A DNA stretch of 64,000 bases. It comes from an uncultured virus (IMG/VR IMGVR_UViG_3300042519_003322) (Duplodnaviria; Heunggongvirae; Uroviricota; Caudoviricetes). Position 1 is the first letter of the stretch. Each line of letters begins with the position of its first letter. A program made the position numbers and the translations under genes. The notes under the pieces are model-generated. The model had not been told where the DNA came from. It saw only the letters and a list, made by a program, of their open reading frames with translations, and made no database searches. Below, in pieces: positions 20,284 to 50,220 of the stretch. The stretch lies in IMG/VR virus record IMGVR_UViG_3300042519_003322. One strand, written 5' to 3'.

Positions 20284-20380
20284 AGGGACTTATCTACTCT
20301 TACCGAATGGGGCGTGGCGGAAAGTCTGCCATGTAGTGAGGTGATGAAAAAAAACGAAATAATGAATAGGAGTAGTGCCA

Positions 20381-20614
20381 TCACTTATCTACTCCAGTTT
20401 CCAAACTGTCCTCTAAATCCCATTTGTGGGCGAGTGCCATTTCAGCGATGATGGGCATAACGCTCATTCCCTCAGTGCATGCCAAAGTTTCCCAATCACG
20501 CTGTGCCTGTTCGCCTGCGTACTTGCCCTGCTCTATGTCCTGCTTCATGCCCTCGTAGTAGTGGCACACTCTCGCTAGAGTTTCGTACAACTCGTCCAGC
20601 AGTTCCTCATTCAT
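20381..20614 (-). CDS. Hypothetical protein ending in motif A (GVDK*)
   Basis: GAAAGAAGG RBS. Confidence 0.6.
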   Translation of the reverse strand: MNEELLDELYETLARVCHYYEGMKQDIEQGKYAGEQAQRDWETLACTEGMSVMPIIAEMALAHKWDLEDSLETGVDK

Positions 20615-20815
20615 TTCGTAGCCTTCTTTCTAGTAGTGGTTTCTATTGTACCTTGACTTAGACCTTGCCCACTACCTCAGACGGAAAATCAAAGGAGCAT
20701 GATTCTCAACGGCTGAGGCAGTGGTGGTACATAGAGTAGATAAGTCCCCCTATGCCCAAATCCTTTCGGGGTGATGGTGGAATGAGTACCACCATCACCC
20801 TCTAAGGAGACTTAT

Positions 20816-22366
20816 CTACTCCATATCGGGAGAGGACTTGCCCATGTGGTTGAGCCATATCCTGCGGAATGTCCACGGGTACACGCTCTGCGCCTTGCCA
20901 TTTATGCGCAGGTTGCGCAGTTGCTCAATGGCTTCCTCAATATGGGGAACGACGATGTAGCCGTGTTGCTTGGCGTAGGTCATGCACTGCATGGCGAGCA
21001 GGTCAGAGAATCCGTCATTCTTTCCGCACACTCCACCGTCTGTTATCCAAACTAGAGGTGTGGTCCGATATTGGCGATTCTTTACGCCCCACTCAATAGC
21101 GGGGAAATCCACGCCGTTGCCATGTCCGTAGTCAATGTAGTCCACTGTCTCAACCATACGACCCTTATCGGCAACTACCCATGCGTTAGGAGAACCATCG
21201 TGGCGACCCTTATCGCTGTAAATCATCACTGTTGCGCCTTGTGCGTTCTCAATGATTTCAGCGATTTGTTCAGTAGTGAATGACATAGAACCACTAGCGT
21301 CAATGATGACCATGCCACCACTACCACGAACGGTCTTGTCAAAAACTCTCTTGGCAGGGTCGGTCATGAATCGGTGCATACGGCGAGGACGAATACCAAC
21401 ATTTGTGGCGATTCGCTTCTTGCCCATAGAACCAGTGTGATAGCGAGGTAGTGGCTCTCGGCTCACTCGTAGTTCCGCCCAAGAGACTGCTCCACTATTG
21501 TCGGCAGGGGCAATCTTGCCATGAGGATTCCCGTTCTTGTCTCCGTCTTTTTTGGACTCCTCGTATTCGCCACTGTGTTCCTCGCCTGACTTATCTACTC
21601 CACCTTCGGGCTTGCCATCTCCCTCTTGGTCACCCTTGCCACCCTTGCGCTTCTCAGGTGGTGAGAAACTGGCGAGCCTGTCCACCCATTCTGCGATTCG
21701 CTCAGTGTGAGTGAATCCGTATGGGGCGAGTCCATCGTGTTCGTCGGTACTTGCGAGAGTACGACTACCGTGTGCCTTGCGGATTTCTTTCATGGCTCGC
21801 TTGCCAATATCCAGCAGTGCGTCACCCCATGCTCTGTTATGCCTGCGAACACCGTTCAGGAATGTCTTGTGTCCAGCAGTACCAGCGGTAGCGATACACA
21901 TGGCAACTGCTCCAGCCCAATCATTGCTCTTGGCTAGTTGTTCTCCACTTGCTAGTTCGCTTCCGTCTGAGAGAAACTTCTTTACATCAAAGCCTCTCTG
22001 TTGGCAGAGATAGTTCACTCGTAGTTCCTCGGCAACGGTCATTGCTGTTTCTGAGGCTACTAATCGTGCTGTCCACATTTCCATTTGTTCGGGAGTCGGG
22101 GAAACTCGTGCATGCATCATTTCATGCCCACGAATAACACGCTCCATATCTCCATCTTGTGATGGGGCGAACATGATTCTTTTGGAAATGTCTGTACGAG
22201 GCTCGCCACGAACTGGTCGGCAATCCTCAACAGTCCATCGCTCATGCTCCAAGTCATTACGACCAAGCATGTTCGGTTCAGGGCGGTGTTCCCCTCTAGC
22301 AGAGTTATCTACTCCACTAGAAGGGAAGGCGCGACCCCTGCTATTTTTGGCAGGTGTAATAGACAT
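20816..22366 (-). CDS. vWA-domain (CobT-like) protein with N-terminal HExxH
   Basis: HEMMH; acidic Gly-rich linker; IIDASGSM MIDAS, GNG.D, WITDG; next to a MoxR ATPase. Confidence 0.8.
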   Translation of the reverse strand: MSITPAKNSRGRAFPSSGVDNSARGEHRPEPNMLGRNDLEHERWTVEDCRPVRGEPRTDISKRIMFAPSQDGDMERVIRGHEMMHARVSPTPEQMEMWTARLVASETAMTVAEELRVNYLCQQRGFDVKKFLSDGSELASGEQLAKSNDWAGAVAMCIATAGTAGHKTFLNGVRRHNRAWGDALLDIGKRAMKEIRKAHGSRTLASTDEHDGLAPYGFTHTERIAEWVDRLASFSPPEKRKGGKGDQEGDGKPEGGVDKSGEEHSGEYEESKKDGDKNGNPHGKIAPADNSGAVSWAELRVSREPLPRYHTGSMGKKRIATNVGIRPRRMHRFMTDPAKRVFDKTVRGSGGMVIIDASGSMSFTTEQIAEIIENAQGATVMIYSDKGRHDGSPNAWVVADKGRMVETVDYIDYGHGNGVDFPAIEWGVKNRQYRTTPLVWITDGGVCGKNDGFSDLLAMQCMTYAKQHGYIVVPHIEEAIEQLRNLRINGKAQSVYPWTFRRIWLNHMGKSSPDME

Positions 22367-23098: not shown

Positions 23099-23460
23099 GA
23101 TGATTTGCTCCTTTAGTAGCGGTTGGTTGGGATACACGAACCATACCACCCTCGGTACAGACTTTCATAATCTGTTTACACCTCATTATGTGTCCATATA
23201 TATAGAGAGAGACTTATCTACTCTCCATGCAGACTTATCTACTCTCCATACATATAGGGAGACTTATCTACTCTGTTCCTCTGAACGGCGGTGGCGAACC
23301 AGCAACGCACGAACTCCGATTTATCTATTACCCCCCCATTCGCCTTCACCGCCTTCCGTCGGCGAAAGCCCCGCTGGGGTGTCGGTGGTGGCCGGGGCTC
23401 CTGCCCAAAAAAGGAGACTTATCTACTCTAAGGTCTAGTCAGTAAAGAAAGGAGACTTAT

Positions 23461-23952
23461 CTACTCTTTGATATTTCTGTCAGCAACTACTCGCCACAAA
23501 CCCTTTTTTACTTTCGTGTAAAGGGGAGATTCCGTGAGGTGTCGCAGCGTTGTCTGATAAGAAAATCCCGAAATCTCAACCAGTTGTTCTGTTGAGTATT
23601 CTTGAGTTCTGTTCTCTTTCGCCCATTTATCAAAGGCGTCGTACTTCTCTTGTCGTCGTGGCATTCTGCTTCCCATGTCCAACGCCGTGGCTTCTATCTC
23701 CAGATGGGAAAGATATTTATCAGTAAAAGATTCCATGCCCTGCAATGAATAACGGCGCAATGTAGAAATGGGATTCCCAACAGAACCCTCTCTCTGCCAT
23801 ATCTCTAGAATATAAAGACCTCTGACAATTTCGGCTATTTTTGTTCTTTCGTCCCAGTGTGCGTACTGTTCTTTTGGCGTCTTATATTTCTTGTTGTATT
23901 CCGCATAAAGTCGTGCGTGTTCCTCAAGTGCGAAAGCGATGGTGAAGTTCAT
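23461..23952 (-). CDS. Hypothetical protein with C-terminal winged-helix-like segment
   Basis: YSTEQLVEISGFSYQTTLRHL..KVKKGLW; stop codon lies within motif A. Confidence 0.6.
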   Translation of the reverse strand: MNFTIAFALEEHARLYAEYNKKYKTPKEQYAHWDERTKIAEIVRGLYILEIWQREGSVGNPISTLRRYSLQGMESFTDKYLSHLEIEATALDMGSRMPRRQEKYDAFDKWAKENRTQEYSTEQLVEISGFSYQTTLRHLTESPLYTKVKKGLWRVVADRNIKE

Positions 23953-24095
23953 TTTGTTTTCCCTTTGTTTGGGTTGGTCTGCGACCATATCACTAAGGTA
24001 TCAGACTTTCTAAAGTGCTTGCGATAAAATCAAAAAAGTGCCACCGCTTGCTCGACGGTGACACTTCTTTGAGCAGTATGAGGATTGTGACTTAT

Positions 24096-24981
24096 CTACT
24101 CCAATAAGGCGAGGGCATTTCGTTGCGCACCGTCAATGAGGATTCGCAGGTCTAGGAGCATGTCCACCATCTCGGCAGAGGTCACCAACCCCCTGCCTGA
24201 GCAACTGGCTATTGCCTTGTCCAACATGACAGTTGCCTGCCCTAATAAGGTGGGGGTTGATGACTCGTCCATGACTTATCTACTCCTTTGTCTTTCGTTT
24301 TGGGGCTTCGTTCAGCAAGTCCTTGTAAGCGAGGGCATTTACAGCAAGGTGCATATAAGCGACTGTTGCCAATAGGTGGTCAGGGATTCTCCCGCCGACT
24401 TCCTCGTTCTCGTCCACCTCGGAGACAGTGCAGGTGGGTTCATCGTCAAATACGGGAACTCCCTTGTCGTCGTAGCGATACAGGGAAGTGACATTCCAAA
24501 TGTGACTGCCACTCCAGTCCACAGCCGTAAAGACGATTCCTTCTCTGACGGTAGAAAATGGATTTTCTTTGTAGTCCTTCTCAAACAATCTATTTCTGTT
24601 CACATCGCCAGCCCACTCAGTCTCCTCAGCGTCGGAAACATCATCTCTCATGTATCCCTCAACACAAAGGAGCAAGAAAGAGAATGGACGAATAGGCAAA
24701 GCATGGACAACTTCGTCATAAGCCTCTAAGACATTTTCTTTATGAATGAGAGGAACAACGGCAATGTGGTACGGAAGTGAAAGATTGTTTTCTTTTTGAT
24801 ATTCCAAAGCACCATCATGGTCAGGGTTGTCCTCATTGCTTTCCACAGCGATAAGCAGTAGCGGTGGATTGTCCTGCATGGGTTCGTCCTTGCACATTTC
24901 TGTTTTTGCGTAACAGACTCGGTTTAGGACTTCTTCCATTATGCTCTTGATGTCCTCATCAACTTTTTCTTGCGGTTTCAT
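24096..24981 (-). CDS. Two hypothetical proteins (24280-24981; 24096-24272, 58 aa, translated manually)
   Basis: GAAAGGGG RBS; both end GAG-TAG inside motif A. Confidence 0.6.
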
Positions 24982-25099
24982 TTCAGTTCCCCTTTCTAGG
25001 GATTGGTAGGTATGTGAACAGTACCACGATGGGTACAGATTTCTAAAAGTTATCTACTCTAAGTGGGAGTCGGTACAAGCCCCCACCTACAGTATTTTC

Positions 25100-25324
25100 T
25101 TACTTTTTCTTTCCAAGGAGTTTCGTTACCGAAACGCCCAATGCTTCACTTACGGCGAGCAGTGTTTCCACGCTCGGTTGGAATCGTCCATTCTCAATAC
25201 GATTTACGGTTTTACGGTCAAGACCAGCCCTGTCTGCTAGTTCTAACTGTGACCATCCATTGTCTTGTCTGCATAGTCGTACTGATTCAGAGATTACTTC
25301 TCCTGATTTTGTGATATTTCCCAT
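25100..25324 (-). CDS. XRE-family HTH regulator
   Basis: WSQLELADRAGLDRKTVNRIENG..PSVETL..VSEALGV. Confidence 0.9.
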   Translation of the reverse strand: MGNITKSGEVISESVRLCRQDNGWSQLELADRAGLDRKTVNRIENGRFQPSVETLLAVSEALGVSVTKLLGKKK

Positions 25325-25377
25325 TATGGGTTACTTCCTTCTTTGTTAGGGGGTTTGTATTTATTTACTTATTTGGC

Positions 25378-26133
25378 TTAGATAGATGAAATGAAAGTTC
25401 TTGGCGTTCTCCCTTCTTTTTCACAACGGCGAACATAGGACAAGTGCTTTTTGTATTCGGACATACAAGTAGTCATATCGTCATCGCACTGTTCCATGAG
25501 AAAGTTGTTCCATTCAGATTCGGCTTCGTACCATTCGTGGAGCATGTCATCAGTTGCTCCTTCGGCGTGGGCTTTTTCGCAAAGTTTGTGCAACTCGGGT
25601 GTCTGCCTATTAGGGTCACGATGACCCGACTCAATGGTGACTCCATTGTGGTAGACCGCCCAAAGCACAAAGGCTCGTGATTCCTCGTCTGAGGAAACTC
25701 CAAAGATGAGACTCGGATACAAAGCAGAAATAGCCAGTATTAGTCCATCGGCAGGACTCCAAGCAGTTTCGTAACGGAGAGAAAGTTGATTTTTATTGAC
25801 TTCAGGGTCATCTATCTCAACTCGGCATGCACCCCACTTACTTCCCCAAGTCTGCAATGCATTTGCGTACCCGTCAAAACCATCAGTTTCCAATGACGCA
25901 AAGACAGACATGACTGTTGTGACTTCCTCTCCCTCATCATTTTTGTGTACATGGGTACGAGTGGCACTGCCTCTTGGGTCAAGAGGAACGAGTTTGTTTA
26001 GTTCATACTCAGCAACGACTCGTGGTTGAGTTTCGTCTGACATGACATGGGCAACCGTGATATCTGCAAGAAACCTTTTGAGTTCTCGCTTACTTCCAGT
26101 GACTGTCATGTAGTTGTAGCACCAGTTTGGCAT
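25378..26133 (-). CDS. DUF1281/YubB-like ferredoxin-fold protein
   Basis: MPNWC.N...VTG; WGSKWG; YETAWSP. Confidence 0.75.
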   Translation of the reverse strand: MPNWCYNYMTVTGSKRELKRFLADITVAHVMSDETQPRVVAEYELNKLVPLDPRGSATRTHVHKNDEGEEVTTVMSVFASLETDGFDGYANALQTWGSKWGACRVEIDDPEVNKNQLSLRYETAWSPADGLILAISALYPSLIFGVSSDEESRAFVLWAVYHNGVTIESGHRDPNRQTPELHKLCEKAHAEGATDDMLHEWYEAESEWNNFLMEQCDDDMTTCMSEYKKHLSYVRRCEKEGRTPRTFISSI

Positions 26134-26401
26134 GGCTTCCTTCTTTCGGTTGGTGGGTGTGAGGAAAGCATACCATCGCTGGTACAGGCTTCTGTGTTGT
26201 GACTCTTCCACCACCGTCATTGTGTTTCCTGACTTATCTACTCTGTATGTGCTGTTGATTTCGTGCGTCCGATTTATCTATTACCCCCCAATCGCAAATT
26301 CTGCTCGCCTTCGGATTTTTTGTTTTTTCGGCGAGAGCCCCGGGGGCATTGAGTCCGATGCGGGGCTCCTGGCCAAAATAAACCCAATCGGGTGGACTTA
26401 T

Positions 26402-28264
26402 CTACTCTAATAGGCTGGCGTAAAGCAGGTTGGTCTTGACGGCCCTATCGCCACTGAGCCTTCTCGTCTGCCTGAGAAATCCAATGAGGTGGCTCACCTT
26501 TGGTAGGTGCATGTCAGTTTCATCGGACCAGCCGTAATCATCAAAGGATGACTTATCTACTGGTACTGGGGCGAACGAAATAAGTAGCACTTTTTCATCT
26601 TTGTCCGCTTGGCTCATGTGACATTCTGCTCCGACGAGAATCAGGTCACGATGAAACAAGGTATGCCGTAGGTACGACATTATGATGGACAAATACAGGA
26701 ACAGCACTTATCTACTCTGATACTGCTTTGATGGTGAAGTTCATGTCACTGGCAGGGGTCCGCTTTTTATCGTGAGGCATATAGGTCACGCCCATGGTGA
26801 GCGATAACATCATTGCCGAAATCTCAGCGTCGGTCATTCCGTAGTCATCACGCAATGTGTCCTCTAGCGAGCCATTGGCATACTCGTCCCAAATAATCGC
26901 CAGTGCTTCTACTGCAGAAGTAACTAGAGAATAGTAGTTGTACCAAATGATGTCCTGAATCTCCAATAACTCAGAAAGGCTATTTTTTGACTTATCTACT
27001 CCACGTGTCATTGGTTCACTCTCCACTCGGACTGGGGCATACAACCAAGGGCGAAAAAGTCCTCTAGTCCCTCTGCCGTTCCACAGTCTGAACAAACATA
27101 GGTTGAGTTGTCAGTGCGTGATAACGCTCCAACATATTTGCCTCGCTGTAGGTCATTTGGGATACCCCCGAAACAGCGAGGGCAGGTGTGTTGGTCAAGT
27201 GCGATACTCATGATTTTCTCATTTCTTTTTTGATTTGCTGTAACAGCATAAGGGTGTCTTTGTACATTTGACTGTCAGTTCCGTGAAGGTCGGCTTCCAT
27301 TTCTAGATTTGCCTCGTGTTCGTCGTGGAGTCTCCACAACTCGTCATCGCCTTCCTCAAGACAGGCAACATGGTCACTCCCCATCTCAACAATCTTCACC
27401 CAAGAAAGAATGGCTCGGAGAAAAGCAGAGCCAAAGTCGTAGTCGGGTGGGCATGCACGAACCTCAGTACGGAACTCCTCGATTTCGTGTTCGGGGACTC
27501 CCTCTCGTCGGAGAAAGTGGACAATCTCTGAGATGATATGGGAATCAGTCATTCCAACAATGCTGAGGCTGATGTTGTCATATTTGGGCTTTATTTGTAA
27601 GTGTGTCATGTTCCTCACCACTTGTAGTCTGTGTAAAAAATCGGATTTTCTGTGAAGTGAAGGTTGTTGCTACTTTCACTCATTCTGTATGTTCCATTCT
27701 TGCGGAGTCTCACTACCTTGACATCGCCAAGAGGGTCGGAGATTGCTTTGAGTCCTACCACGGGCAATGGCGCACCATCGGTATAGACCTGCTCTCCTCT
27801 AGTCATTGACCTGAGTGTAATCGTCTTGGCTGTCTTTTTGATTACCTCGTAACAGAGTGTGTCTGTCACCAGTGTCTCCGTCATGTACTCCTTTGTCAAT
27901 AACTCGGTCATGAATCCAGTGTTTGTCGTTTCCATCAGGAATCATCTCCATCATCATCGGCTTCGTCGTCAATGCCTTGGGGTGCTTCCACATCAGGGAA
28001 GTAAACGATAATGCCTCTGCCCATGTCATCAAAGACTGGACTGGAGAGTGCCATACACAAGTCATCGTCCGTAACCATAAGAGCGAAACGGAAAGCGTCC
28101 TGAATCCCGTCCATGTCAATGCCTAGACACTGCTTGCCATACATGTTGCGTCCGCTATAGGAGCGCAGTTCGGCTCCGTCAATGTCATTCAGGAGAGTCT
28201 GAATGTCCTCAACTTGCGTGTCCGTTAGTGCTTTGGGTTTATCCCATCCTGCTGTCATTCTCAT
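26402..28264 (-). CDS. Operon of small hypothetical genes (27935-28264, 27615-27935, 27208-27609, 27008-27211 Zn-finger, 26712-27011, 26402-about 26700)
   Basis: Overlapping stop/start chain behind the promoter at about 28310; CPRC..ALSRTDN..VCSDCG in 27008-27211. Confidence 0.6.
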
Positions 28265-28619
28265 TGGTGACCCCTTTCGGTCTTGGTTGTTGCCCAACAG
28301 TACCACGCTGGGTACAGACTTCCATAGTTATCTACTCTGATGAGACTCTTCCACCACCGTCATATATTTTCGGGAGTTATCTATTACCCCCCCATGCTCG
28401 TCTGGATTTTTCATTTTATTTTCATTTCGGAAAAACGGATTTATCTATTACCCCCCCCCATCGGCTGGATTTTCGGCGAGAGCCCCGGCCCGTTGCACAT
28501 GTCAGCGGGGCTTCTGCCTGAAATCGGGGGCGCACTCGAAAAGTTATCTACTCTACCAATGCCCAAAAAGTTATCTACTCTACTAATGCCCAGCGAAGCG
28601 CACTAGCAGAGTAGATAAG

Positions 28620-28955
28620 TCAATCGGGGTTGGGGGTGTTTCCGAATCGCACTTCATAACGGGCAAGTGCCGAAGGCAAATCGGCGCAGTAATCTCCCGA
28701 TTCCAGATACCACCCATCATCACGGCAGACAGCGACCCACACTCCGAACGGGTGAAGCGTGTTATGGGGGATGAGACACAGGACCGACCACACGGCGTAG
28801 GCGTCATACGAGCGAAGCAATCTGCTGGCGAGAATGGTCACAGGGAAGGTACTGCTACACGGGGTGAAGGTGTCCCCTATCGCCAATAGTTCGGGCTGGT
28901 CGTGGGGCAAGTTCGTCGGTGCTTGGGTAATCAGTGGGTACTTATCTACTCTCAT
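28620..28955 (-). CDS. Hypothetical protein starting in motif A (MRVDKY)
   Basis: Start 2 nt after the upstream stop; similar to 38978-39280. Confidence 0.55.
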   Translation of the reverse strand: MRVDKYPLITQAPTNLPHDQPELLAIGDTFTPCSSTFPVTILASRLLRSYDAYAVWSVLCLIPHNTLHPFGVWVAVCRDDGWYLESGDYCADLPSALARYEVRFGNTPNPD

Positions 28956-28957
28956 TA

Positions 28958-29407
28958 CTAGACCCCCTCTCCGCTTAGCCACTTGTCAAACTCTGCCTCA
29001 CTCAGCGAGTGAACCTTAGGCGTCAGGTCCACATTCGCAATAAGGTTCTTGATACGGTCCGTGATTTCCTCGTTAGCGAGTAACACTTCTGCCATTTCAC
29101 GGAAAGCACTGGATAGAAACTCTTTCGGAATATCGTGATTCTCTCCGTCGTATTCGCCATCTTGCGAAAGTGAGCCAATGATTACGCAATCACCAACGAG
29201 AGGGCGACCAAAGATGATACTTGCGAGGATGTTCGGCTCTAATCCGATGAGCAGTCCCTCGTCGTTCACATATCCGACGATGTCCTCATTCCTCACGCAG
29301 TCAATCCAGCCACCACAAAGTTCGTTCAGAACAAGGTGACCATTCTCTGAAGGTATTTCAGTGGGTTCTATTTCTCCCGTGGTCTTGATGAGTAGTCCTA
29401 GTGCCAT
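28958..29407 (-). CDS. DUF3846-like protein
   Basis: L..LCGGWID.V...YVNDEGL..L.PN..AS...LVGD.VI.G. Confidence 0.75.
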   Translation of the reverse strand: MALGLLIKTTGEIEPTEIPSENGHLVLNELCGGWIDCVRNEDIVGYVNDEGLLIGLEPNILASIIFGRPLVGDCVIIGSLSQDGEYDGENHDIPKEFLSSAFREMAEVLLANEEITDRIKNLIANVDLTPKVHSLSEAEFDKWLSGEGV

Positions 29408-29680
29408 TAGCGCGACCCCTTTCGGTCTGTTTGTTGTTAGGTGATGTCAGCGTACCACACGGGGTACAGACTTCCACATTTCCGAACTTATCTATTACCC
29501 CCCCAGTGTTCCTCGCCTCACTTTTGGGCAAGAGCCCCGTTGAGGTAGGCGTGCCGGCGGGGCTTCTGCCCCAAACTCTCGCTCGTCGGGTGGACTTATC
29601 TACTCTATCTCTCTCGCCCACTGGGGGACTTATCTACTCTCACTGCGGTAATGAGAGTAGATAAGTGTTGCCCTAGTTTG

Positions 29681-30076
29681 TTAGGCGGTCTTAGCGACGG
29701 GCTTCACTGCGCCTTTTGCTGGGCGTACCAACACTCGGACAGATGTGGTCACTGAGGTAATCGCCTTGACAACCTTCGCTGGAACTTTGCCTTCCTTGAC
29801 AGCCCTATCCCACGCTGAGGTATCCACGCTTGGCTTGGTGACGGTGCGGAATAGTGGTGCGCTGATTAGGTCACGCAACTTCTCAATGTCAAATGAGCGT
29901 CGGTCACTTGGGCTGATTTTGATGTTGATTTCCTCGTAGTCAAGCGTGTCCACGCCGTGCTTGGCATAGACAGCGAGCAAGAGTTCTTTCGCTTCGTCGT
30001 GAGCCTGCTCTGCTTGCTCTTTGGCGGTGAGAGCGTTTAGAAACGCCTCGGTTGCTTTGCTTACTTCCTTCTCCAT
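29681..30076 (-). CDS. Hypothetical protein, possibly Gam/Gp157-like coiled coil
   Basis: GAAAGGGG RBS; N-terminal coiled coil, RRSFD.EKL, K.SVD. Confidence 0.5.
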   Translation of the reverse strand: MEKEVSKATEAFLNALTAKEQAEQAHDEAKELLLAVYAKHGVDTLDYEEINIKISPSDRRSFDIEKLRDLISAPLFRTVTKPSVDTSAWDRAVKEGKVPAKVVKAITSVTTSVRVLVRPAKGAVKPVAKTA

Positions 30077-30648
30077 TGGAAACCCCTTTCGGTAGGTACT
30101 TTTATTGGGAGAACCACAGGCGTATTGCTTGTGGCTTGCCACAAGCATATACCGCCTAGTACAGACTTCCAACTTCACTTGACACTTATCTACTCTGATG
30201 TAGTCGGCTCGCCCCAACCCCCTTTGATGTAGGATTTATCTATTACCCCCCCATTGTCAGGGCTGACCCTCGTTTGGGGCGGAGGCCCCGGCGGTGTTGG
30301 GGTTTGTGGCGGGGCTTCTGCCAAAAAGTCGGCTTTTTTGCGAGATGGGTGGGTAATAGATAAGTGAGCATTTACATTTGGGATTACGACACTCGGCTTG
30401 CTCGGATACAACGACTGACAGACGAGGCGAACAGGCTTACGGCTCTTGTCCGTCAGGCGAACTCGGATACTCGCACTTGGCTCAATCGCAGTAGTTTCAG
30501 AGTTATCTACTCCAACAACATAGACACGCCCGATACAGAGTAGATAAGTAAGAGTAGATAAGTCGGAATAAGTAAAAGGGGCTGACTCACCACTATCGGC
30601 AAGCCAGCCCCTACTTTTGGGTGAAGTCCCTCTCAGAAGGGAAAGGGG

Positions 30649-31095: not shown

Positions 31096-31252
31096 TTTCT
31101 CTCCTTGTCGGCAGGGGTAGGTGTTCCGCTGACAATAAGAACAGTACCACTCTAGGTACAGACTTCTAAGACTTATCTACTCTAGTAATAACAAAGTCCC
31201 CGACAGTCGGGGGAGACTATCGGGGACTAGGTATTGCTGGTGGAGATAGGTG

Positions 31253-32850: not shown

Positions 32851-33105
32851 TTCCTTGCCCTTTCGCTCGGTTTGACTAGATGTCAAAACTATACCGCCAT
32901 AGGTACAGACTTCCAACAGTTATCTATTACCCCCCCCATTTGTGCGACCACACCCAGCGATGGGCAGAAGCCCCGCAGGTCACCGAGCGAAGCGGGGCTT
33001 ATGGCTAAAACCCTCGCCCGAGAGGATTGGGGGGGTAATAGATAATTCAGAAACTTTTATGAAATACTTTTGACAATCCGACACGCAACGCCACTTGTAA
33101 TAAGT

Positions 33106-33411: not shown

Positions 33412-33488
33412 GAGTAGATAAGTCTGCTTACGAGTTATCTACTCTAGTTCGGGCGTGAACTAGAGTAGATAAGTGAGTCAGGGCTACT

Positions 33489-39974: not shown

Positions 39975-40234
39975 GCCCAAAGAGTACCACCATAGGGACA
40001 GGCTTACGAAGTTCTGTCATACGGGCTGACACATTCGAGAAGGCTGAGTATTGTCATATGAGCCGACACATTCGAGAAGGTCAATTTTGGCAAAAGCCCC
40101 GCAGGTTTGCCGAGTGCAGCGGGGCTGTTCCCTGAAACGGAACGCCGAGGCGAGATGGGGGGGTAATAGATAACTTGGAAGTCTGTCCGTCGTATGGTAC
40201 GCTCATCTCATCCAACTGAAAGGGGATATCAAAA

Positions 40235-41562
40235 ATGTCAGATACAGCACTCAAAACGAAAGTCATCGGCGCAATCGCTGATGGAACAATCGTCGGTGAT
40301 GGACACACCATCTACCTGCCGTCGTTCTACGCTCCACACTTCAGCGAGGCAGAACTACGCAAGGCGAAGCTCATCCACACTCACAAGTCGGACACATCCG
40401 ATTACAAGTCCACCATCTTTGACAAAGACGGGAAGCCGATGGAGAAGTTGGAAGGCGTCTACAACCTCAACTTCCTGTATTGGCTCTGTGGTGCGCTCGG
40501 CGTGAACTCACACAACGATTACAACGGCCGTGGTTCACAAGCACAAGAACTCGCCCGTCGTATCCGTGACGCAGTCAAGTAGAGAGTAGATAAGTCATGG
40601 ACACCGCCTACATCGTTCCCGCAGCACTAATGCGAGGATACGCACGAGGAGACAACGACGCTCTCACACTCGCAGAGAAAGACCACTCCCCCCTATCGGG
40701 GGAGTGGGCTGGCGAGAGTATGACCGAACTCCTCGGTGACCTGATTGCTCTCGCAGAGAATGATGAACACGCTGACGAAGTCTGCTTGGCGTATGAGCGA
40801 GGGTACTCGGCTGGATACGACCATCGCACAAGTCGAATGCTCCCCCAGTAATAGAGTAGATAAGTCTCACTCTCCCTTATCGTGCCGGTATTCTGATTTC
40901 GGGGGAAGCCCCGCTGGTCTGCGTGCGGTGCGGGGCTCTTGCCGTTTTTCCGAGTGCCGCGGAAATGGGTGGGTAATAGATAAGTTCGGGATTCTGTCCC
41001 TGTAGTGGTACAGTTTGGATATGACCAACACACTCACACATCACCTGCGCTTTGCGCTCGCCTCTGCCCTCTTGCGCCCTGTCTTTTGGGTCTGCCCAAA
41101 ACGCTTCGCTAATGGTCTTAATACGGAACTAAATGACCGTAGAGAAGGGGAGTCAGGATACGGCGTCAAGGAAACAATTTCCCGCTCTTTCTTTCTCAGG
41201 GAATATGGTCGCTGGGGCAGATTCGGCGACGAAAGAGGCTTTGATGTTCTGAGTTGTCGCAACCGCTCACTACGCTCGCGCCTGCGCTTTGCGTTCGCCA
41301 CCGCTCTCGCTCTCCTTGCCTTTCAGGTCTACCCATTCACAAACGAGAAAGAAGGTTACTGATTATGAACAAACAAGAAGCGCAGCGCTTTGCCAAAAAG
41401 AGGACACTGCCCGAACTCTACGAGATTATTCGCCTGAGTTCGGACTACGAGCGAACCGATGAGAACCTGCTCATCGTGGCTGTAGTAGACGCCGAGATTC
41501 GCAACCGAGTGGGGCAGGACCACCCCGTTGGTTTGGCGAGCATTCTCGCTCCCCGACCCTGA
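40235..41562 (+). CDS. Four rightward cassette genes (40235-40582, 40597-40851, 41021-41362, 41365-41562)
   Basis: Promoters at 40175 and 40986 and motifs A/B all flipped to the + strand. Confidence 0.65.
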
Positions 41563-42226
41563 CAGTAGAGTAGATAAGTTCCCCCATTCGGGCAGATGGG
41601 GGTCTTATTCTCTCGGGAGCCCCGCTGCCCACCCGGCCTTCACCTCGAGATTAGAAACGTTCACCCCTCGAGATTAGAAATCCTCATTCATCAAGCCCGC
41701 TGATAAAGCGAGAAAAGCTTCATTTATGTCCCGTATCACACTATTTTTGTACTCTTCTTTTGTGAGACGTATCACGAGCGTTTCTCTATCGCGTACAAAT
41801 GGGTCGCCCGCAGGCCACTCCTCCTCCATAGGTATTTCGAGCGTGTACCAGGTGCGATTTTCTGTTTTGTGAATTTTGTATTTACGGACTCTCTCTACTG
41901 TTGAGTCAAGACGAATTTTGTCAATATCTTCATTGTGGGCCATAACCAATAGCTTACTTCTTCTTGCCACCTCTGCTTGTCTACTTTGTGGCCCGGGCAT
42001 ACAGGGCAGGTAGGTAGCTCGGTGAGTAAAACGAGACAATAGAAGGTAGGGTTTATGGCTCGGGGCCGACGACCTGTCAAGTCGTTGGTTAAATGAGGTG
42101 AGTACCAAGCACTTGATGTGAGCCGAGTGAACAGTTATGCTGCTCGCGATGAAGCCAGCCATTGTGTGAGAGAACGGCCGAACCCCGGAACACTCGCCGA
42201 ATATAAAGATGAACGAAAGGAATCAT

Positions 42227-42817: not shown

Positions 42818-43603
42818 GAAGGAAAAATATGACAAGCAGAGATACTTACGACATTCTCACCTACGAAGAAGAACAGGAAGAATCTATGAACGGAATCAAT
42901 ATCCAAATCAACACACTTGTAGACGCAATGATTGACGCGGAGAAGTGTTTGTTCCATAACAGCCCGGACAACCTGATGGTGAACTCTTTGCTGAGAGAAG
43001 TAGCCGGTGTCGAGGAAACGAAGAGCCCCTTTGTTTTCCGTGGCTCGCATCCGGATTTACCCGTAGGCAAGTAACCATCGTGCTCGTGAACATCACAGTC
43101 CGCAACAACCAAAGAGGCCAATGCGAGATTTGTCATCTCAAGTCGTTCAGGTACAGTAGATGGTCGCACGTACAGATGTGGTACAAGAATCACAAGTGCG
43201 TCGACGGAATAAAGACTTCCCGCAATGGCTCGATGTCGGTAGGTGTCCGATGAGATACCTTCTGCCTGAACCATTTTGCTGCGAAGCTCAACGACCCGAT
43301 GGATTTACCTACCATCAGTTCGTAACCGTGTGCGACACTTGCTTGACGCAATTCCCCTATTATGATTGTTACTGCGAGTTAGAACACGAAGATTGTAACG
43401 AGTCAACGAAACGTGCGAATATCGCCTACCGAGAGAGCAACCGATGAATAACAAACTTTATAGCAGTTTTGAGAATTGGAAATTATCACGCAAGGAACTC
43501 AAAAGGCAGCGCCAGCTTGATAACTTCGCCACCGGTGAAGGTGCGTCTGGCGAGTCGGAAATTGATTGGCTCTCTGACGTAGTACGTCACGGAGAGTAGA
43601 TAA

Positions 43604-44056
43604 CTACTCGTTATTTGCTGCTGTCTCTGTATCGTCGATACCGGAGACTATTTCCTGAGCGATTAGCTTTGCGTACTTCCTACGTAGCCGCCAGATTTTG
43701 CGGTTCATCTCTATCATCTGCGTACTCATACGGGCTTTTGTAATTGCGTCATCATCAAATACGCCGTGGATACTAAACAGTGCGTCGTGAATTTCGGTAT
43801 CTTCTATGAGTATGTCCGAAATCCAGCCCGCACGAGTGTCTATGGCCATCATCAGTTCGCATAATCCCTCTACCCCGAATTCGTGATAAAAACGATTTAC
43901 GACAATGTTACAGAAGTGCGCCTGATACATCTTTTGAGCCTTCTGTGATTGAGACATAAACTCCGATAGCCACACGGCAAGTTCGGCACTCGACTTGTCG
44001 TCGAAATCATCTGTATCGTCATCAGCGTAGTCGTCGTCGTCTCTATCATTGGACAT
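43604..44056 (-). CDS. Hypothetical acidic protein
   Basis: AGGAG RBS. Confidence 0.55.
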   Translation of the reverse strand: MSNDRDDDDYADDDTDDFDDKSSAELAVWLSEFMSQSQKAQKMYQAHFCNIVVNRFYHEFGVEGLCELMMAIDTRAGWISDILIEDTEIHDALFSIHGVFDDDAITKARMSTQMIEMNRKIWRLRRKYAKLIAQEIVSGIDDTETAANNE

Positions 44057-45149: not shown

Positions 45150-45345
45150 TGCGTCTCCGTTTTCTGTTACTAGATAAATCTATCTGAAAAACTTGCCGTA
45201 TAGGGGAAGGAAATCTAACGGGGCTCCCGCGGACAAAAAGAGAACGGCTAGGCGTTTGGGGTTTTCCCCTCGCTTGCGAGGGGCGAGCGTGGGGGGGTAA
45301 TAGATAACTCTCGCAAGTCTGTACCCCCCGTGGTACAGTTCGGGT

Positions 45346-45840
45346 ATGAACCGAACCGAACTTCTCAACTTAGTCCGAACCACAAGCCTCAACCTGATGA
45401 ACGCCTGCGAGGGCGACGGAACCATTTACGCCTGCTACGGAGATGATGAAATCATCGCTGAGTTCCCAGGGCTTATGACCAAGGCGCAAGTCATCGCCAA
45501 GGTTCGCAAGATGGACAGCGCAACCGCCGACCACCTGAACGAGGTGCTTATGTTTTCGGGTGAGTACGAAATGGTGAACGGCGTCGCCGTTTCCAAATAC
45601 GAACTAGAACGCCAAGCCGAACTTGCCCATAAAGCGGAAGCCGACACCGACGCAGACGGCGAAGCCTACGGAGAGTTCGTGATGAATTGGGTTATGGGCG
45701 GTGGACTCGCAAGCGACGCACCACAAGCGTGGCGACAGAAAGTTCTCGGAGAAGAACCCGTGCCTTACTATATGGACATGACCCCCGAAGAGCGCGAACG
45801 AGATAATATCCGCTTTGAGATGGAACAGGAAGGGTGGTGA
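45346..45840 (+). CDS. Hypothetical protein (leaderless)
   Basis: ATG 6 nt after TACAGT -10. Confidence 0.65.
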   Translation: MNRTELLNLVRTTSLNLMNACEGDGTIYACYGDDEIIAEFPGLMTKAQVIAKVRKMDSATADHLNEVLMFSGEYEMVNGVAVSKYELERQAELAHKAEADTDADGEAYGEFVMNWVMGGGLASDAPQAWRQKVLGEEPVPYYMDMTPEERERDNIRFEMEQEGW

Positions 45841-46089
45841 CCCCAACGGGAGTAGATAACTCGGCGCACACTTGCCCGACCTAGCCCCCTCTCACCTCTA
45901 GAGCGAGGACAAGCAAGCGAGCGCATTTCTCGCTTGTGCGTCAGCCCAACGAGCGAAGCGAGGCGGGAGAGTCAAGAATTATTGCGGGGCTCCTGGCCGC
46001 TAGGGGCGGGCGTGGGGGGTGATAGATAAGTTTAGAAGTCTGTACCCGTGGTGGTACGCTAAAGGTATCCAAGTGAAAGGGGATACGAA

Positions 46090-46278
46090 ATGTCAGATAC
46101 ATTCAGCATCTATCGGGTAGCGGTATTGACAGACGGGCGAACGGTAAAGACCGTAGACGGAACGGGCTTTCGTAGTGAGAAATCCGCTATGAAACATCTC
46201 GGGCTAGCGTTCTACTTTCCTGAAACGAGAGAAAATGAGCGCTCAGTCGATATCATCGTCGCCCGAACGATGCACTAA
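46090..46278 (+). CDS. Small hypothetical protein
   Basis: Promoter at 46032; GAAAGGGG RBS. Confidence 0.6.
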   Translation: MSDTFSIYRVAVLTDGRTVKTVDGTGFRSEKSAMKHLGLAFYFPETRENERSVDIIVARTMH

Positions 46279-46446
46279 CAACGCCGAAAAGTTATCTACT
46301 CTCACTCACGGGCGGTGGTGAGAGTAGATAACAGGTGGCGACTCCTAGCGGTCTACTTCTACTGAGCAAGGCGCACAAGCACCGAGCCGACAACTTATCT
46401 ACTCTCATAGATGAGCGCCGACACGGTGCGTGCGTCGTGTACCGAA

Positions 46447-47148
46447 CTAGTACGCCTGTGGTGCTTCTACCGTGAACGGTATTTTGCACTTAGGACACAA
46501 GGGGGACTCTGACCCTGCTTCGCCGAATATCGGTGACTCATCATCGGCGAGCGAGTACCCGTGAACAAGGGAGACCGCTTCGCCGTAGTTCACACTCACT
46601 GAGTGCTCTTCATCGTTCGGGCAGTGGAGATAATAATCGGCGTTGTCATACGGGAACGCTTCCGCCATATCAACCGTGACACGGAACGCCCTAGGCGTGG
46701 TATATCCGCCTCGGACATCTGCGCCCCCGTGTATTTGGAGTAGGACAAAAACTTCGTCACCGTCTGAGAATGTCACGCCCTGTAATGTCTGCGATAGTGA
46801 GTCATTCCCGTTATAGGTATTCCACGAATGAGCACTGCTGTCTTTTTCGGTTGCGAAACTTTCGGCTAATCCGAGGTGACTATCATCGGGGTTTGCTTCG
46901 CAGAAACTACGGAACTCTTCGTCTAAGAGTGGCGCATACTCAAGACGGTTGGTGAGGTAGTGATAGACAGAGAGCGTTACGCCCCAACTGTCTGCCCACG
47001 CTTCGGGTTCGCTGTTCCACTCTGAGAGCGTGCGCCCGTTATTCTTTTGCCAATGCCTCCCGTAGGCATCGCCACTATCTAGGATATGACGACCCGTGTT
47101 CTCCGTGAGCATTTCCGCAATAACTTGCTGGCTTGTGATTGTACGCAT
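46447..47148 (-). CDS. Conserved phage hypothetical protein
   Basis: ENTG.H.LDSG.AYGR.W; NTYN; QIHGGADVRGGYT. Confidence 0.65.
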   Translation of the reverse strand: MRTITSQQVIAEMLTENTGRHILDSGDAYGRHWQKNNGRTLSEWNSEPEAWADSWGVTLSVYHYLTNRLEYAPLLDEEFRSFCEANPDDSHLGLAESFATEKDSSAHSWNTYNGNDSLSQTLQGVTFSDGDEVFVLLQIHGGADVRGGYTTPRAFRVTVDMAEAFPYDNADYYLHCPNDEEHSVSVNYGEAVSLVHGYSLADDESPIFGEAGSESPLCPKCKIPFTVEAPQAY

Positions 47149-48099
47149 TTTGGATTTTCCCTTTCCGTGTAGATGTCAATACTGTACCACTAGGCGGACA
47201 GATTTAGTTATCTACTCTAAGTGGAGACAACTTATCTATTACCCCCCCACGCACCCTGTAAAAAAGGTATTTGTTTCGTGTTCGTGGGTAGGAGCCCCGC
47301 TCATTTGCTTCAGGAGATTATTTGTCCTGATGTCATGCGGTACATAACGGCATAGCAGTAACCCCTGCGTTGTTTCGTTCTGCTCTCGACTTCGGATAGC
47401 TTCCGTTCTGAGAGCCGGCCCATTTCATCCGGTGACCAATAGATGTCCAACTCCATCTCGGTATCTCTCATAAGCGATACGAGGTTTACTTCACTACCCG
47501 TGGCACTCTGGGGCGTCACGCCTGCGTCACGGCAGGCACGAAAAACTTTTGTTAGAAACAATGAACAAGTGAGCATCTGTTCTAAGTTTTCTTCATCGGT
47601 CAGGTAGTCGTTGGTCAGGTACGAAACACGAATGGACTGATGGAGGGCGTGGGGTGGCCTGTAAATTCCTGACACAGAGAGAGAGTACCACTCACTGTGC
47701 GGGCGGGTGTCCTATCCCCACTGAACTGTGTTCGTCGGTCTCTCTTCCGGCTCTACGGCAAGAACTTCTAGAAAGCTTCCCTGCTCTAGTAACTGATGAA
47801 CCATAGACACAGCTTCATCGATGCTCGATGGTGCGTCTATGTCATCTCTTTTACGGACTACGACGGTTATGCGGTAAGTGTTCATACCTAGCACCATACC
47901 GCATTACACAGTCGGGCAACACTCTGAGCCTGATAGTGCGTTTCACACGGGATACTTCTGATAATGCGTTGCGTACCATCTGAGGTAGGTACGGCTAACC
48001 ACACTTCTACGGTATTCCCAATGGTGTTGATATGAATGACTGTTCCTACCAATGAGAGTTTATCAATGGTGGTGGAGTGTAGGTCTAATGAGTTCATAG

Positions 48100-50220
48100 G
48101 TTCGTATCGTACCGTGACGGTGGTGGGTAGTCAATGGTATGGCTATCGGTATTGAGTAAGGGGTGGTAGAGGATAGGTATCCAATCAGATACCCGTAGGG
48201 TACCCGTGGCACTTGGCGATTTCGGGGGCTAAGGGGGTCAAGCACTAAGTGGAAAGTGTTAGGGGGCATAAGGGGGCATAAGGGGGATGGTGGTACGAGG
48301 GGTGGGTAGGCGTATAGATAGGCGCATAGTCATATGTTGCGGGGTGAAAGCGTCGCAAACTGCGGGGTGTGAGGGCAGGCGTACGAGGCAGGCGAGTAGT
48401 GGGGTGCGTATCACGATGTATCACGATGTATCACAATGGGTCACAATGGGTCATCGAGCAAGAGGTAGGTGGGCGAGGAGTATGAGCAAGGGGTCAAGGG
48501 GCAAGAGTAGATAAGGGTATGAGGTGGGGTAGGGATAGGTAGCGAGGGTAGGTGGCAAGGGTGAAGGTGTCGAGGTACTAGGTGGGGGTGGTAGGGGTAT
48601 GAGTACCCGTGGCATACCCGTGGCACTTGGCGATTTCCGGTCAAGGGGTTCAGTGGTGAAGGTGACGAAAGACAAGGGCGATGAACAGCGAGGGGCAAGG
48701 GTGAATGAATGAGTGAGTGATATGAGCAATGGTATGAGGGTAGGCACTAGGTGAAGGGAAGGCTATGAGTGAGTGAGTGGTGCGAGGTAGGGGGTATCAG
48801 TAGCGAGTGAGGCGCTATGTATGTATGTATGTATGTATGTATGTATGTATGTATGTATGTATGTATGTATGTATGTATGTATGAGGGGTATTAGTGAATG
48901 AGTGATATGAGTGATATGAGTGAATGAGATATGTAATAGGGGCATTAGGTAAGGGGCAATAGGTGAGCGAGTGAGGTGAGTGACTAGGTAAGGGTATTAG
49001 GTAAGTGGCGTAGGTGAGTAGTAATGAGCATGAGCAATGAATGAGTAGTGAGTGGGTAGTCATAGGCACGAGTAGTGATGAATGGTGCTAGGTGGGGTGG
49101 GTGGTATGAGTGAGCGATGGGTGAGGGGTATGAGTTAGTAAGTGAGCGAGGTAGGTGATGGTATGAGGTGATGGTGAGAGGTAGGGGGTGATGGTATGAG
49201 GGGTATGAATGAATGAGGTAGGTGATGGTGAGAGGTAGGGGGTGATGGTATGAGGGGTATGAATGAATGAGGTAGGTGATGGTGAGAGGTATGAGTGAAT
49301 GAGGGGTATGAGTGAATGAATGAATGAGTAGTGATGAATGGTGTTAGGTGAGTGAGTGATATGAGGTGAGGGGTATGAGTGAATGAGGTAGGTGATGGTA
49401 GGGGGTATGAGTAGTGAATGAATGAACGAATGAATGAATGATGGCAAGGGGTATTAGTAGTGAGTGATATGAGTAAGGGTGGTGGGGTATGACTACCCGT
49501 GAGATACCCGTAGCACTTGGCGAAAGTGATACGAGGTCAAGGGTACGAGGTAATGGGTGATGAGTGATAGGGGGTGATGAGCAGTAGGGGTGGTGGTGAT
49601 GAGCAAGGGGTATGGGTGAATGGTGATGAGTAATGGGGATAGGTGATAGGGGTATTGGTATGAGTGAGGGGTATGGGTACAGGTAAGGGGTATGGCTATG
49701 AGGTGAGGGGTATTGGTATGGGATACCCGTAGCACCTAGCGATTTCACTTATCTACTCTATTGCTTTGAGGCATTGCGTTGATGGTGTGCCTGCCCTATG
49801 CGTTGCGTTGATGGCATTGCGCATTGCGTCGTATGCGTATTGCTTATGCGTTGCGTCGTATGCGTTGCGTTTCATTGAGGCGTTGCGTCGCGTCGCGTCG
49901 TTGTATGTTGTGTGTTTCGTTTCGCTAGTGCGTTGCGATGTTGCTAGTGCGTTGCGTTTCATTGCGTGTTGCTAGTGCGTTTCGTTGAGGCATTGCGTAT
50001 TGCGTATTGCGTTGCGTGTTTCGTTGAGGCATTGCGTTTTGTTTTGTGTTTCGTTGAGGCGTTGCGTATTGCGTTTCATTTCGTATTGCGTTGCGTTTCG
50101 TGTTTAGTTCAGGGCATTGCGTTTCGTTGCGATGTTGCGTTTCGTCGTTGTGTATTGCGTTTCGTCATAGCGTGTTGCGTCGTTGCGTCATAGCGTGTTG
50201 CGTCGTTGCGTGTTGCGTTG
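48100..50220. repeat. Low-complexity, strand-biased non-coding tract
   Basis: G-rich, C-poor + strand to about 49740; (TATG)x17 at 48816-48883; 54-bp tandem unit at about 49165-49290; degenerate (GCGTT)n at about 49770-50220. Confidence 0.85.

Follow-up and report, generated by a model that had tools for sequence, protein, structure and literature searches.

An oriented 13-base box repeated across one gene block of a lake actinophage, compared with stoperators

Stoperators of the cluster A mycobacteriophages are asymmetric 13-bp sites that occur in many copies, are oriented with transcription, lie in short intergenic regions overlapping stop or start codons, and in some copies stand at a promoter; published accounts put them at 'more than twenty' or 'as many as 30' over a genome of ∼50 kb (PMC9283540, PMC6550527). 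Here we describe a 13-base element, the box, in a 64,000-nucleotide stretch of DNA from an uncultured virus of the Caudoviricetes (IMG/VR record IMGVR_UViG_3300042519_003322), called the window throughout. As far as the cited accounts describe them, the cluster A stoperators (L5 gp71, Bxb1, TipsytheTRex repressor) are its closest published match: like the L5-type sites, the boxes are asymmetric words of ∼13 bp in many copies, their orientation follows transcription, and they are found in short intergenic spaces and at promoters. Judged from the sequence, the box is probably a DNA-level site through which a bound protein regulates the surrounding gene array.

Two further phage systems share some of these traits. 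Promoter-early stem-loop (PeSL) elements of T4-type phages, each a stem-loop with an early promoter, lie between the small variable genes of hyperplastic regions, whose gene content and order are shuffled among relatives (PMC4122927, PMC2839356). The window likewise repeats a fixed order of GC-rich inverted repeats (14) and promoter-like elements (23), with low gene sharing; unlike PeSLs as described in those reports, it has in addition an exact, oriented 13-base box at stops, at starts and inside genes, and host and promoter type differ. The start-associated sequences of cluster K (SAS and ESAS) are 13-bp asymmetric words in one orientation in the non-structural half of the genome; they lie 3–7 bp before start codons, contain AGGAG, at times include the upstream stop codon, and are conserved across subclusters beside different genes, with accompanying inverted repeats (PMC3203893). 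In contrast to these sequences as reported, only ∼10 of 76 boxes are start-adjacent, and the ribosome site of the array, GAAAGGGG, is a word separate from the box. Dispersed operators are represented by the 17-bp asymmetric operators of P1 C1, the conserved inverted repeats of phiC31, the MotA boxes of T4 and the KorB sites of RK2. In each, a single regulator recognises the same word at many scattered places and so controls one temporal gene class, but the copies are far fewer than here and several of the words are palindromic or follow no orientation rule.

The box and its copies

The window contains 76 matches to AGAGTAGATAAGT with at most two mismatches, compared with 1.20 expected (mean of 100 dinucleotide shuffles; maximum 5). 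Forty-six copies are exact, 21 have one mismatch and nine have two. When all copies are aligned, positions 2–11 (GAGTAGATAA) show little or no variation; A or G occupies position 1, G or C position 12, and the flanks are almost without information except for a weak C right after the box. The element can be written as RGAGTAGATAA(G/C)T; the conserved word is present on one strand only and is thus asymmetric. Fifty-six copies lie on the minus strand and 20 on the plus strand, and 74 of the 76 fall within 20287–49759, in agreement with an initial annotation of the window that had put more than 70 copies in this interval. No match to the full 13-mer or its complement was found in the searched literature, where shorter substrings occur only as unrelated primers. 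Two familiar identities were rejected: no internal hexamer of the box fits TANNNT, the form of a sigma-A −10 element, and the 7/9 agreement of its complement with the DnaA box consensus TTATCCACA was treated as chance.

The window is part of a larger phage genome. Another IMG/VR record, G001 (119,748 bp, rated 71% complete), belongs to the same phage: it is 100% identical to window positions 1–7606 and, in reverse, to 45278–64000, one of its two ends lying within the box array. Because both ends match at 100%, the window and G001 close a genome of 157,419 bp. In this genome the 10-base core has 74 matches, 73 of them at 17.3–49.8 kb of the window and one elsewhere, so that the box-rich block takes up ∼30–32 kb of 157 kb; most of its genes have no family match. 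Below, A denotes the lineage of the window phage, B that of a complete 156,276-bp relative (G002), and C and D further relatives.

20287–47700 (both strands): the array, ∼50 small, mostly ORFan genes with nearly all boxes and with all private promoters, G-run boxes and GC-rich inverted repeats

The boxes follow the direction of the genes. Against gene calls from our own codon-model caller, which is crude, 50 of the 76 are co-oriented, 13 are antisense and 13 ambiguous. Removal of inverted-pair members leaves 53 boxes, of which 41 are co-oriented, three antisense and nine ambiguous (binomial p = 1.6 × 10−9), and where the genes switch to the plus strand, at 40.2–45.9 kb, the boxes switch likewise. 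In the complete relative, with inverted pairs left out, 39 boxes are co-oriented and one is antisense. The asymmetric, mostly coding-strand word of the initial annotation therefore stands, the bias persisting without the inverted pairs.

In terms of placement, in classes that are not mutually exclusive, 12 of the 76 boxes abut a promoter-like element and 64 do not adjoin one; nine are followed by an inverted repeat within 75 nt, ∼13 contain a stop codon, ∼10 adjoin or lie inside first codons, 4–6 are within genes, 23 belong to inverted pairs and 16 have a tandem neighbour. Many sit in long intergenic cassettes, others in short intergenic spaces. The copies are as follows (start positions are given for members of groups).

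13200–13212 (+): two mismatches; TAG stop of gene 12571–13206; next gene starts 2 nt later
17312–17324 (−): one mismatch; intergenic
20288–20300 (−): exact; intergenic
20383–20395 (−): one mismatch; VDK and TGA stop of 20381–20614; ATG 1 nt later
20733–20745 (+): exact; antisense, single; kept in lineages B, C and D
20810–20822 (−): one mismatch; TAG stop of the 516-aa gene
21589–21601 (−): one mismatch; GVDKS within the 516-aa gene; in relatives the box is 18 nt away
22303–22315 (−): two mismatches; GVDNS within the 516-aa gene; kept in C and D, partly in B
23212–23274 (−): three tandem exact boxes (23212, 23233, 23262)
23417–23429 (−): exact; GC-rich inverted repeat 18 nt beyond
23455–23467 (−): exact; TAG stop of 23461–23988
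24090–24102 (−): one mismatch; TAG stop of 24096–24272
24274–24286 (−): one mismatch; TAG stop of 24280–24981; next ATG 1 nt later
25048–25060 (−): one mismatch; abuts the −35 of a promoter-like element
26232–26244 (−): exact; ATG of a 280-aa gene 11 nt later
26396–26408 (−): exact; TAG stop of 26402–26707; then GC-rich inverted repeat
26551–26563 (−): two mismatches (CCAG...); within an open reading frame (ORF); weakest member
26706–26718 (−): exact; TAG stop of 26712–27095
26990–27002 (−): one mismatch; among first codons, MTRGVDKS
28326–28338 (−): one mismatch; abuts a promoter-like element
28542–28620: boxes 28542 (−), 28569 (−) and 28608 (+); tandem with inverted partner; then GC-rich inverted repeat
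28940–28952 (−): exact; first codons MRVDKY
29594–29666: boxes 29594 (−), 29628 (−) and 29654 (+); pair with 13-nt spacer and tandem copy
30184–30196 (−): exact; promoter-like −35 11 nt beyond
30501–30563: boxes 30501 (−), 30537 (+) and 30551 (+)
31171–31183 (−): exact; abuts a promoter-like element; canonical terminator-like hairpin precedes
31799–31811 (−): exact; abuts a promoter-like element
32011–32023 (−): exact; then GC-rich inverted repeat
32389–32401 (−): exact; at an ATGA stop/start junction, with MRVDKY as first codons; retained in B, C and D
32718–32730 (−): two mismatches; GVDK within a gene; identical in B, C and D
33411–33474: boxes 33411 (+), 33433 (−) and 33462 (+); right border of the 90%-identity cassette common with lineage D
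34026–34038 (−): exact; abuts a promoter-like element
34223–34261: inverted pair 34223 (−)/34249 (+)
34576–34617: inverted pair 34576 (−)/34605 (+); 16-nt spacer
35154–35166 (−): exact; abuts a promoter-like element of leaderless type
35646–35686 (−): tandem boxes 35646 and 35674; 35646 abuts a promoter-like element
35873–35916: inverted pair 35873 (−)/35904 (+)
36121–36133 (−): one mismatch; gene junction, immediate ATG
36603–36615 (−): one mismatch; abuts a promoter-like element
36755–36824 (−): three tandem exact boxes (36755, 36784, 36812); then GC-rich inverted repeat
37183–37195 (−): exact; TAA stop of 37185–37334; ATG 1 nt later
37333–37345 (−): exact; TAG stop of 37339–37740; ATG 1 nt later
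37759–37771 (−): exact; 1-nt overlap with −35
38253–38295: inverted pair 38253 (−)/38283 (+); 17-nt spacer
38535–38547 (−): exact; abuts a promoter-like element
39308–39320 (−): exact; occupies the −35 place of a leaderless-type promoter-like element
39511–39556: inverted pair 39511 (−)/39544 (+)
40583–40595 (+): exact; right after TAG stop of 40235–40582; ATG 1 nt later
40853–40865 (+): exact; past stop of 40597–40851; then GC-rich inverted repeat
41567–41579 (+): exact; past a plus-strand gene, ahead of a hairpin
43593–43605 (+): one mismatch; TAG stop of 43444–43599
45849–45861 (+): two mismatches; 8 nt past stop of 45346–45840
46290–46333: inverted pair 46290 (−)/46321 (+)
46393–46405 (−): exact; intergenic
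47206–47218 (−): one mismatch; reaches 3 nt into a promoter-like element
48504–48516 (+): one mismatch; within the C-depleted block described below; may be fortuitous
49747–49759 (−): exact; TAG stop of 49753–49962; then a 30-nt element repeated four times

Every coding coincidence named in the initial annotation was verified: the GAG-TAG stops at 20816, 23461, 24096, 24280, 26402, 26712 and 37339, the box-borne TAG that ends the plus-strand ORF 43444–43599, the AGA-TAA stop at 37185, the VDK followed by TGA at 20381, the first codons MRVDKY at 28955 and 32404 and MTRGVDKS at 27011, and the in-frame GVDKS (21591), GVDNS (22305) and GVDK (32720). Two more box-borne stops, at 13206 and 49753, extend the list. 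A sense box presents TAG in one frame and TAA in another and can be read through only as (R/G)-V-D-K; since only this frame is open, the VDK peptide is forced by the DNA. All in-gene copies are sense-oriented, though only one of three frames is open in the sense direction and all three are open in the antisense direction. In the 516-aa gene the box at 21589 is absent from that position in B, C and D, all three of which have a box 18 nt away, at a site where the window has none. Because the in-gene box moved by 18 nt between lineages, the DNA word drives the peptide and not the reverse, which answers the question, raised in the initial annotation, of how VDK behaves in homologues: the peptide follows the DNA word.

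Intergenic cassettes and related phages

Read along the gene direction, the long intergenic regions repeat one cassette. It starts with a stop codon, often followed by a divergent inverted box pair with a 13–18-nt spacer. Next come a T-run, the inverted repeat AGCCCCG...CGGGGCT and an A-run, then a G-run variant of the box, GGGGGGGTAATAGATAA(G/C)T, and then a box ending 0–2 nt ahead of a −35-like hexamer, GTCTGTACC, 6–10 nt and tGGTAYnnT. The cassette ends either with ∼25 nt, the ribosome site and ATG, or with exactly 6 nt and ATG or GTG. Its recurrent parts are located as follows.

23140–47212 (both strands): 23 promoter-like elements of 32 nt each, with −35-like TTRGAA, GTCTGTACC, N6-10 and tGGTAYnnT
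Promoter-like elements, minus strand, first ten: 23140, 25018, 26167, 28297, 29449, 31141, 31769, 32888, 33997, 34449
Promoter-like elements, minus strand, other nine: 35124, 35615, 36572, 37731, 38102, 38505, 39287, 39981, 47181
Promoter-like elements, plus strand: 40172, 40983, 45308, 46029
23319–50238 (both strands): 17 G-run variant boxes, GGGGGGG-TAATAGATAA(G/C/A)T
G-run boxes, minus strand, first seven: 23319, 26272, 28375, 28439, 29486, 30234, 31881
G-run boxes, minus strand, other seven: 32918, 34098, 35752, 36644, 38131, 47230, 50222
G-run boxes, plus strand: 40159, 45293, 46015
23367–40937 (no strand assigned): 14 GC-rich inverted repeats, AGCCCCGS-N6-24-SCGGGGCT
GC-rich inverted repeats, first seven: 23367, 26336, 28481, 30284, 31938, 32969, 34147
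GC-rich inverted repeats, other seven: 34505, 35802, 36695, 38181, 39404, 40095, 40907

The base promoter-like pattern has 21 matches, a looser form 23 and a strict form 19. Immediately upstream of −35, 11 of the 21 carry the 13-mer, six the G-run variant and four nothing, the box or variant thus ending 0–2 nt before −35 in 17 of 21. The 19 strict matches are confined to the array, the other 130 kb having none (shuffle mean 0.015). In every element the −10 part conforms to TANNNT and has a TG-like extension, and TANNNT after boxes is enriched only at +23/+24, the promoter class; the −35-like hexamers are weak (TTAGAA, ATGGAA, CGTAAA). Six elements look leaderless, with −10, 6 nt and ATG or GTG, an arrangement typical of leaderless actinobacterial genes. 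On this conserved pattern the elements look real, sigma-A-like and private to the array. Terminator-like sites number 34 in comparison with 18.0 expected. The GC-rich inverted repeats have a polarity opposite to that of a canonical intrinsic terminator (T-run before, A-run after), and covariation of the outer stem, assessed over 32 copies, was not above shuffles; given the reversed polarity and the stem without covariation, a terminator role for them would be conjectural.

Two other words accompany the promoters. A palindrome, TGTACC-N6-GGTACA, spans the spacer and −10 of array promoters (for example 31141–31172 and 45308–45339) and may be the operator of a dimeric regulator such as the XRE-type protein encoded at 25100–25324. 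Some promoter-abutting boxes are closely preceded by a further conserved word, ATGACGGTGGTGGAAG (26195–26215, 28340–28360, 31812–31830), which is also present in lineage B.

A scan of viral contigs for inverted pairs returned 50 loci from 23 contigs. Nine of these contigs hold 33–48 boxes each, and one further contig is the window phage; ∼12 low-GC viral contigs with a single inverted pair were set aside as chance matches. A search of genome contigs for prophages or hosts with the inverted-pair pattern gave 20 single-pair loci in unrelated taxa and no array. The array-bearing relatives form at least three lineages besides that of the window, with a mean DNA identity of 71–72% over shared segments. 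In the complete relative, all 48 sites (at most one mismatch) lie in 92.1–127.6 kb, syntenic with the window array. Columns of orthologous boxes are 88% identical between the window and lineage B (206/234) against 61% in 25-nt flanks (578/952), and the corresponding values are 82% against 60% in C and 79% against 61% in D, differences to which anchoring of the aligner on the box may contribute. Non-promoter copies at stops, at starts and within genes are conserved in position between lineages, and lineages B, C and D share the box-plus-promoter grammar of the window, with minor variation: C is preferred at box position 12 in lineages C and D, and the G-run class of lineage B reads GGGGGG(G/A)TAGTAGATAAGT.

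The genes between the boxes are less stable. The complete relative has homologues of just 24 of the 50 array genes, compared with 98 of 132 elsewhere in the genome, and gene order differs among lineages. A plus-strand gene within the minus-strand array (33069–33401, 333 bp) is 90% identical between A and D over a background of 60–75%, with sharp identity borders within ∼10–25 nt of boxes on both sides, and looks like a recent cassette transfer. Four DNA runs yielded contigs only, with some joints near boxes; as their sides measure 20–35 nt and depth is low, these joints were not relied on.

Genome context and candidate readers

The window phage is a lake actinophage with an array of small, fast-turning-over genes. 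Its genome is large and actinophage-like, encoding WhiB-like ORFs, DUF732, DUF6011 and DUF932 proteins, a VanY-type endolysin, an SNF2 helicase and SSB, together with Rad52-like, PD-(D/E)XK and RuvC genes. The phage is present in 20 DNA runs labelled lake water metagenome; the 23 runs listed include no RNA run with it. The 'phages' collection gave no megablast match, the best protein match of the helicase being 31–33% identical, and the Rfam scan found tRNA alone.

Two proteins encoded in or at the border of the array are candidate readers. A wHTH protein (10264–10713), the two WhiB-like ORFs described below and a GerE/HTH_38 protein of G001 also come into question as binders.

19508–19882 (+): protein with HA domain and helix-turn-helix (HTH), candidate binder, at the array border
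25100–25324 (−): XRE-type HTH protein of 74 aa, within the array

All four lineages (A–D) have the HA-HTH protein at the border of the array, and its HTH does not vary among them; it matches sigma-70 region 4 (E = 1e-5), and in its AlphaFold model a Pro/Gly linker connects two domains (pLDDT, the predicted local distance difference test, 83.1). It may be the reader. The XRE protein is 70–75% identical in B, C and D; the palindrome TGTACC-N6-GGTACA would be a more fitting site for it than the asymmetric box. A phage RNA polymerase or sigma factor as reader was rejected, none being found by Pfam or PHROGs.

Several features outside the main array were also recorded. The outlying box at 13200 contains the TAG stop of an HslV/proteasome-like peptidase gene (12571–13206). 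Two WhiB-like ORFs are present, at window positions 13957–14181 (+), with the basic C-terminal tail RRRKIKPTRP, and at full-genome positions 75377–75874 (−). In a non-coding block at 48100–50240, ∼1.6 kb are nearly free of C on the plus strand (0–7 per 100 nt) and include a (TATG)n run at 48815–48885; ∼450 bp nearly free of A follow. The C-depleted block holds four copies of a ∼30-nt element, ATACCCGTRGCACYTRGCGAWWTC, the last of which adjoins the box at 49747. The complete relative has no block with any base below 5%.

Three giant ORFs lie at window positions 62590–64000 onward into G001 (L062), at L063 and at L009:7258–15804. A 3305-aa ORF has a PolC/DnaQ-like exonuclease part, a 2887-aa ORF head-protease-like, ArdA-like and helicase parts, and a 2849-aa ORF no family match. 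Loci L006 and L007 of G001 encode a tryptophan halogenase, a 2OG-Fe(II) oxygenase and glycosyltransferases, and collagen-repeat and fibronectin-repeat proteins of ∼1000 aa.

Readings of the array

We consider, with moderate confidence, that the box array works like a stoperator system. The 13-mer would dock one sequence-specific protein, most likely phage-encoded; the asymmetry of the site, most copies of which are solitary, suggests that this protein would bind as a monomer. Upstream of −35, where a box or G-run variant directly precedes ∼17 of the 21–23 array promoters, the bound protein would touch or occlude the contact of sigma region 4 with −35. The ∼55 other copies point along transcription at gene ends, at tight junctions and inside long genes, and the divergent inverted pairs behind many stop codons would block both directions. 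In this way the protein would switch the whole array as a unit, stopping initiation and blocking read-through in an orientation-dependent, stoperator-like manner, with the identical boxes serving, as a by-product, as joints for cassette exchange between related phages. That the site acts on DNA and not on RNA is suggested by the box at −35, which lies outside the transcript of its own promoter. A role in elongation or coating besides initiation is suggested by the promoter-free junction and in-gene copies, which are conserved and always sense. The complete model, with one phage protein at the box blocking both initiation and read-through, is held tentatively and in our estimate falls a little short of an even chance.

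The roadblock or coating function proposed in the initial annotation is favoured by the conserved non-promoter and in-gene copies, which fit it better than a pure promoter role. The likeness to L5-type stoperators claimed there does not hold in distribution: the sites are not genome-wide but confined to one ∼30-kb block. Compared with stoperators as the cited accounts describe them, there are here 76 copies in 30 kb, in one block of a 157-kb genome and with the same confinement in the complete relative; inverted pairs, tandem triplets, a G-run class and cassettes of promoter and inverted repeat are added; and no repressor homologue or lysogeny genes were found (101 PHROG-scanned proteins, 208 Pfam-scanned proteins, two PDB-compared candidates). 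Because of the one-block confinement, and because these scans showed no repressor homologue or lysogeny genes, we do not file the system as a member of the stoperators.

A number of observations weigh against the repressor and roadblock model. A box centred near −44 would serve a class II activator no less than a repressor, and since 12 of the 76 boxes abut the −35 of a private promoter, an activator is as compatible as a repressor with the promoter copies. The Pfam scan of 208 proteins revealed neither an integrase nor any other lysogeny module, so that an immunity-type silencer is not obviously needed. As to the protein itself, the PHROG scan of 101 window proteins returned no cluster A repressor relative, PDB sequence searches with two candidates gave neither a significant match nor such a relative, and a Foldseek search of the HA-HTH model against PDB had no match at E ≤ 0.001, only local HTH matches. 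A generic sigma-70 scan showed no enrichment in the array (13 against 20.2 expected), so that the promoters are called from the private conserved motif. Where a box precedes a GC-rich inverted repeat, it stands upstream of the hairpin, from which a roadblock at that place would gain nothing. Finally, the gene calls behind the orientation counts are crude, and 9–13 boxes are ambiguous through short plus-strand ORFs that are probably spurious.

The strongest competitor, which we nevertheless consider rather unlikely, is a positive promoter element: an activator or specificity factor at the box would recruit host RNA polymerase to the array promoters. Its reader could be WhiB-like, the sigma-4-like HA-HTH protein or a virion-delivered factor, and the remaining boxes would act as reservoirs, represent decayed promoters or provide auxiliary sites. 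Class II activators and the AT-rich site of WhiB7 occupy the same place, just upstream of −35. The position of a box or variant 0–2 nt ahead of −35 in 17 of 21 promoter-like elements, the weak −35-like hexamers, the two WhiB-like ORFs and the sigma-70 region 4 match of the HA-HTH protein (E = 1e-5) all agree with it. It does not account for the 64 of 76 copies away from any promoter-like element, nor for in-gene and 1-nt junction copies that have no −10-like element after them yet are conserved between lineages, and four promoter-like elements have no box at all.

Selection of the box as an identical short joint in PeSL-like cassettes, through which genes are gained, lost or swapped by a phage Rad52-like annealing protein and a Cas4-like exonuclease, seems improbable as the main function. 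Such a role is consistent with the turnover of array genes (24/50 shared with B, 98/132 elsewhere), with gene order that differs between lineages, with the presence of Rad52-like, PD-(D/E)XK and RuvC genes, and with the 333-bp gene of 90% A/D identity whose borders lie ∼10–25 nt from boxes, although this is one case. For PeSLs themselves, shuffling mediated by composite motifs of terminator and promoter has been described (PMC4122927). Breakpoints at cassettes, as in PeSLs, amount here to that one clear case and to block ends near boxes; because boxes sit at gene borders anyway, homology borders near boxes are confounded with gene borders. Moreover, 13 bases are short for annealing-based recombination, and a joint explains neither the co-orientation, the fixed distance to −35, the copies in a conserved gene nor the tandem triplets.

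The sense orientation of the boxes would also fit an RNA-level signal, by which the word in early mRNAs acts in translation or processing: as a ribosome site or coupling signal like the start-associated sequences of cluster K, as a RegA-like operator or as a nuclease site, with the inverted pairs forming 13-bp hairpins. About ten copies lie 0–2 nt (or 11 nt) ahead of a start codon or among the first codons, the G-first variant puts GGAG 10 nt before ATG, and the start-associated sequences are likewise 13 bp, asymmetric and oriented (PMC3203893). We regard this as very improbable: the promoter-abutting copies lie upstream of the start site of their own promoter, 20 copies are antisense, most are not near start codons, and the array has another word, GAAAGGGG, as its ribosome site. 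Recent duplication of one intergenic repeat, or chance, has a negligible probability, for although the cassettes resemble duplicates of each other, the flanks have diverged around an exact box, the box is kept in lineages at ∼72% DNA identity with different genes, and there are 76 copies against 1.2 expected.

Returning to the stoperator-like model, if one protein reads the boxes, then ∼50 genes would be controlled through ∼75 sites in 30 kb, far denser than the stoperators of mycobacteriophages, and polar transcriptional roadblocks would extend beyond temperate immunity to a seemingly lytic 157-kb phage. A bolder version, which we hold to be doubtful, is that one small protein reading the 13-base word acts at once as promoter gate, as polar insulator of ∼50 single-gene units and as universal splice joint. 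If so, a whole library of host-takeover genes would be switched as a block and re-assorted gene by gene among co-infecting lake phages, and no dispersed operator system described would be as dense, at about one site every 340 bp. The cassette grammar provides a ready transcription-unit map for a block of otherwise all-unknown genes and a testable model of how such gene blocks shuffle, and the exact, orthogonal 13-base word with its reader could be developed into a compact part for gene regulation in actinobacteria.

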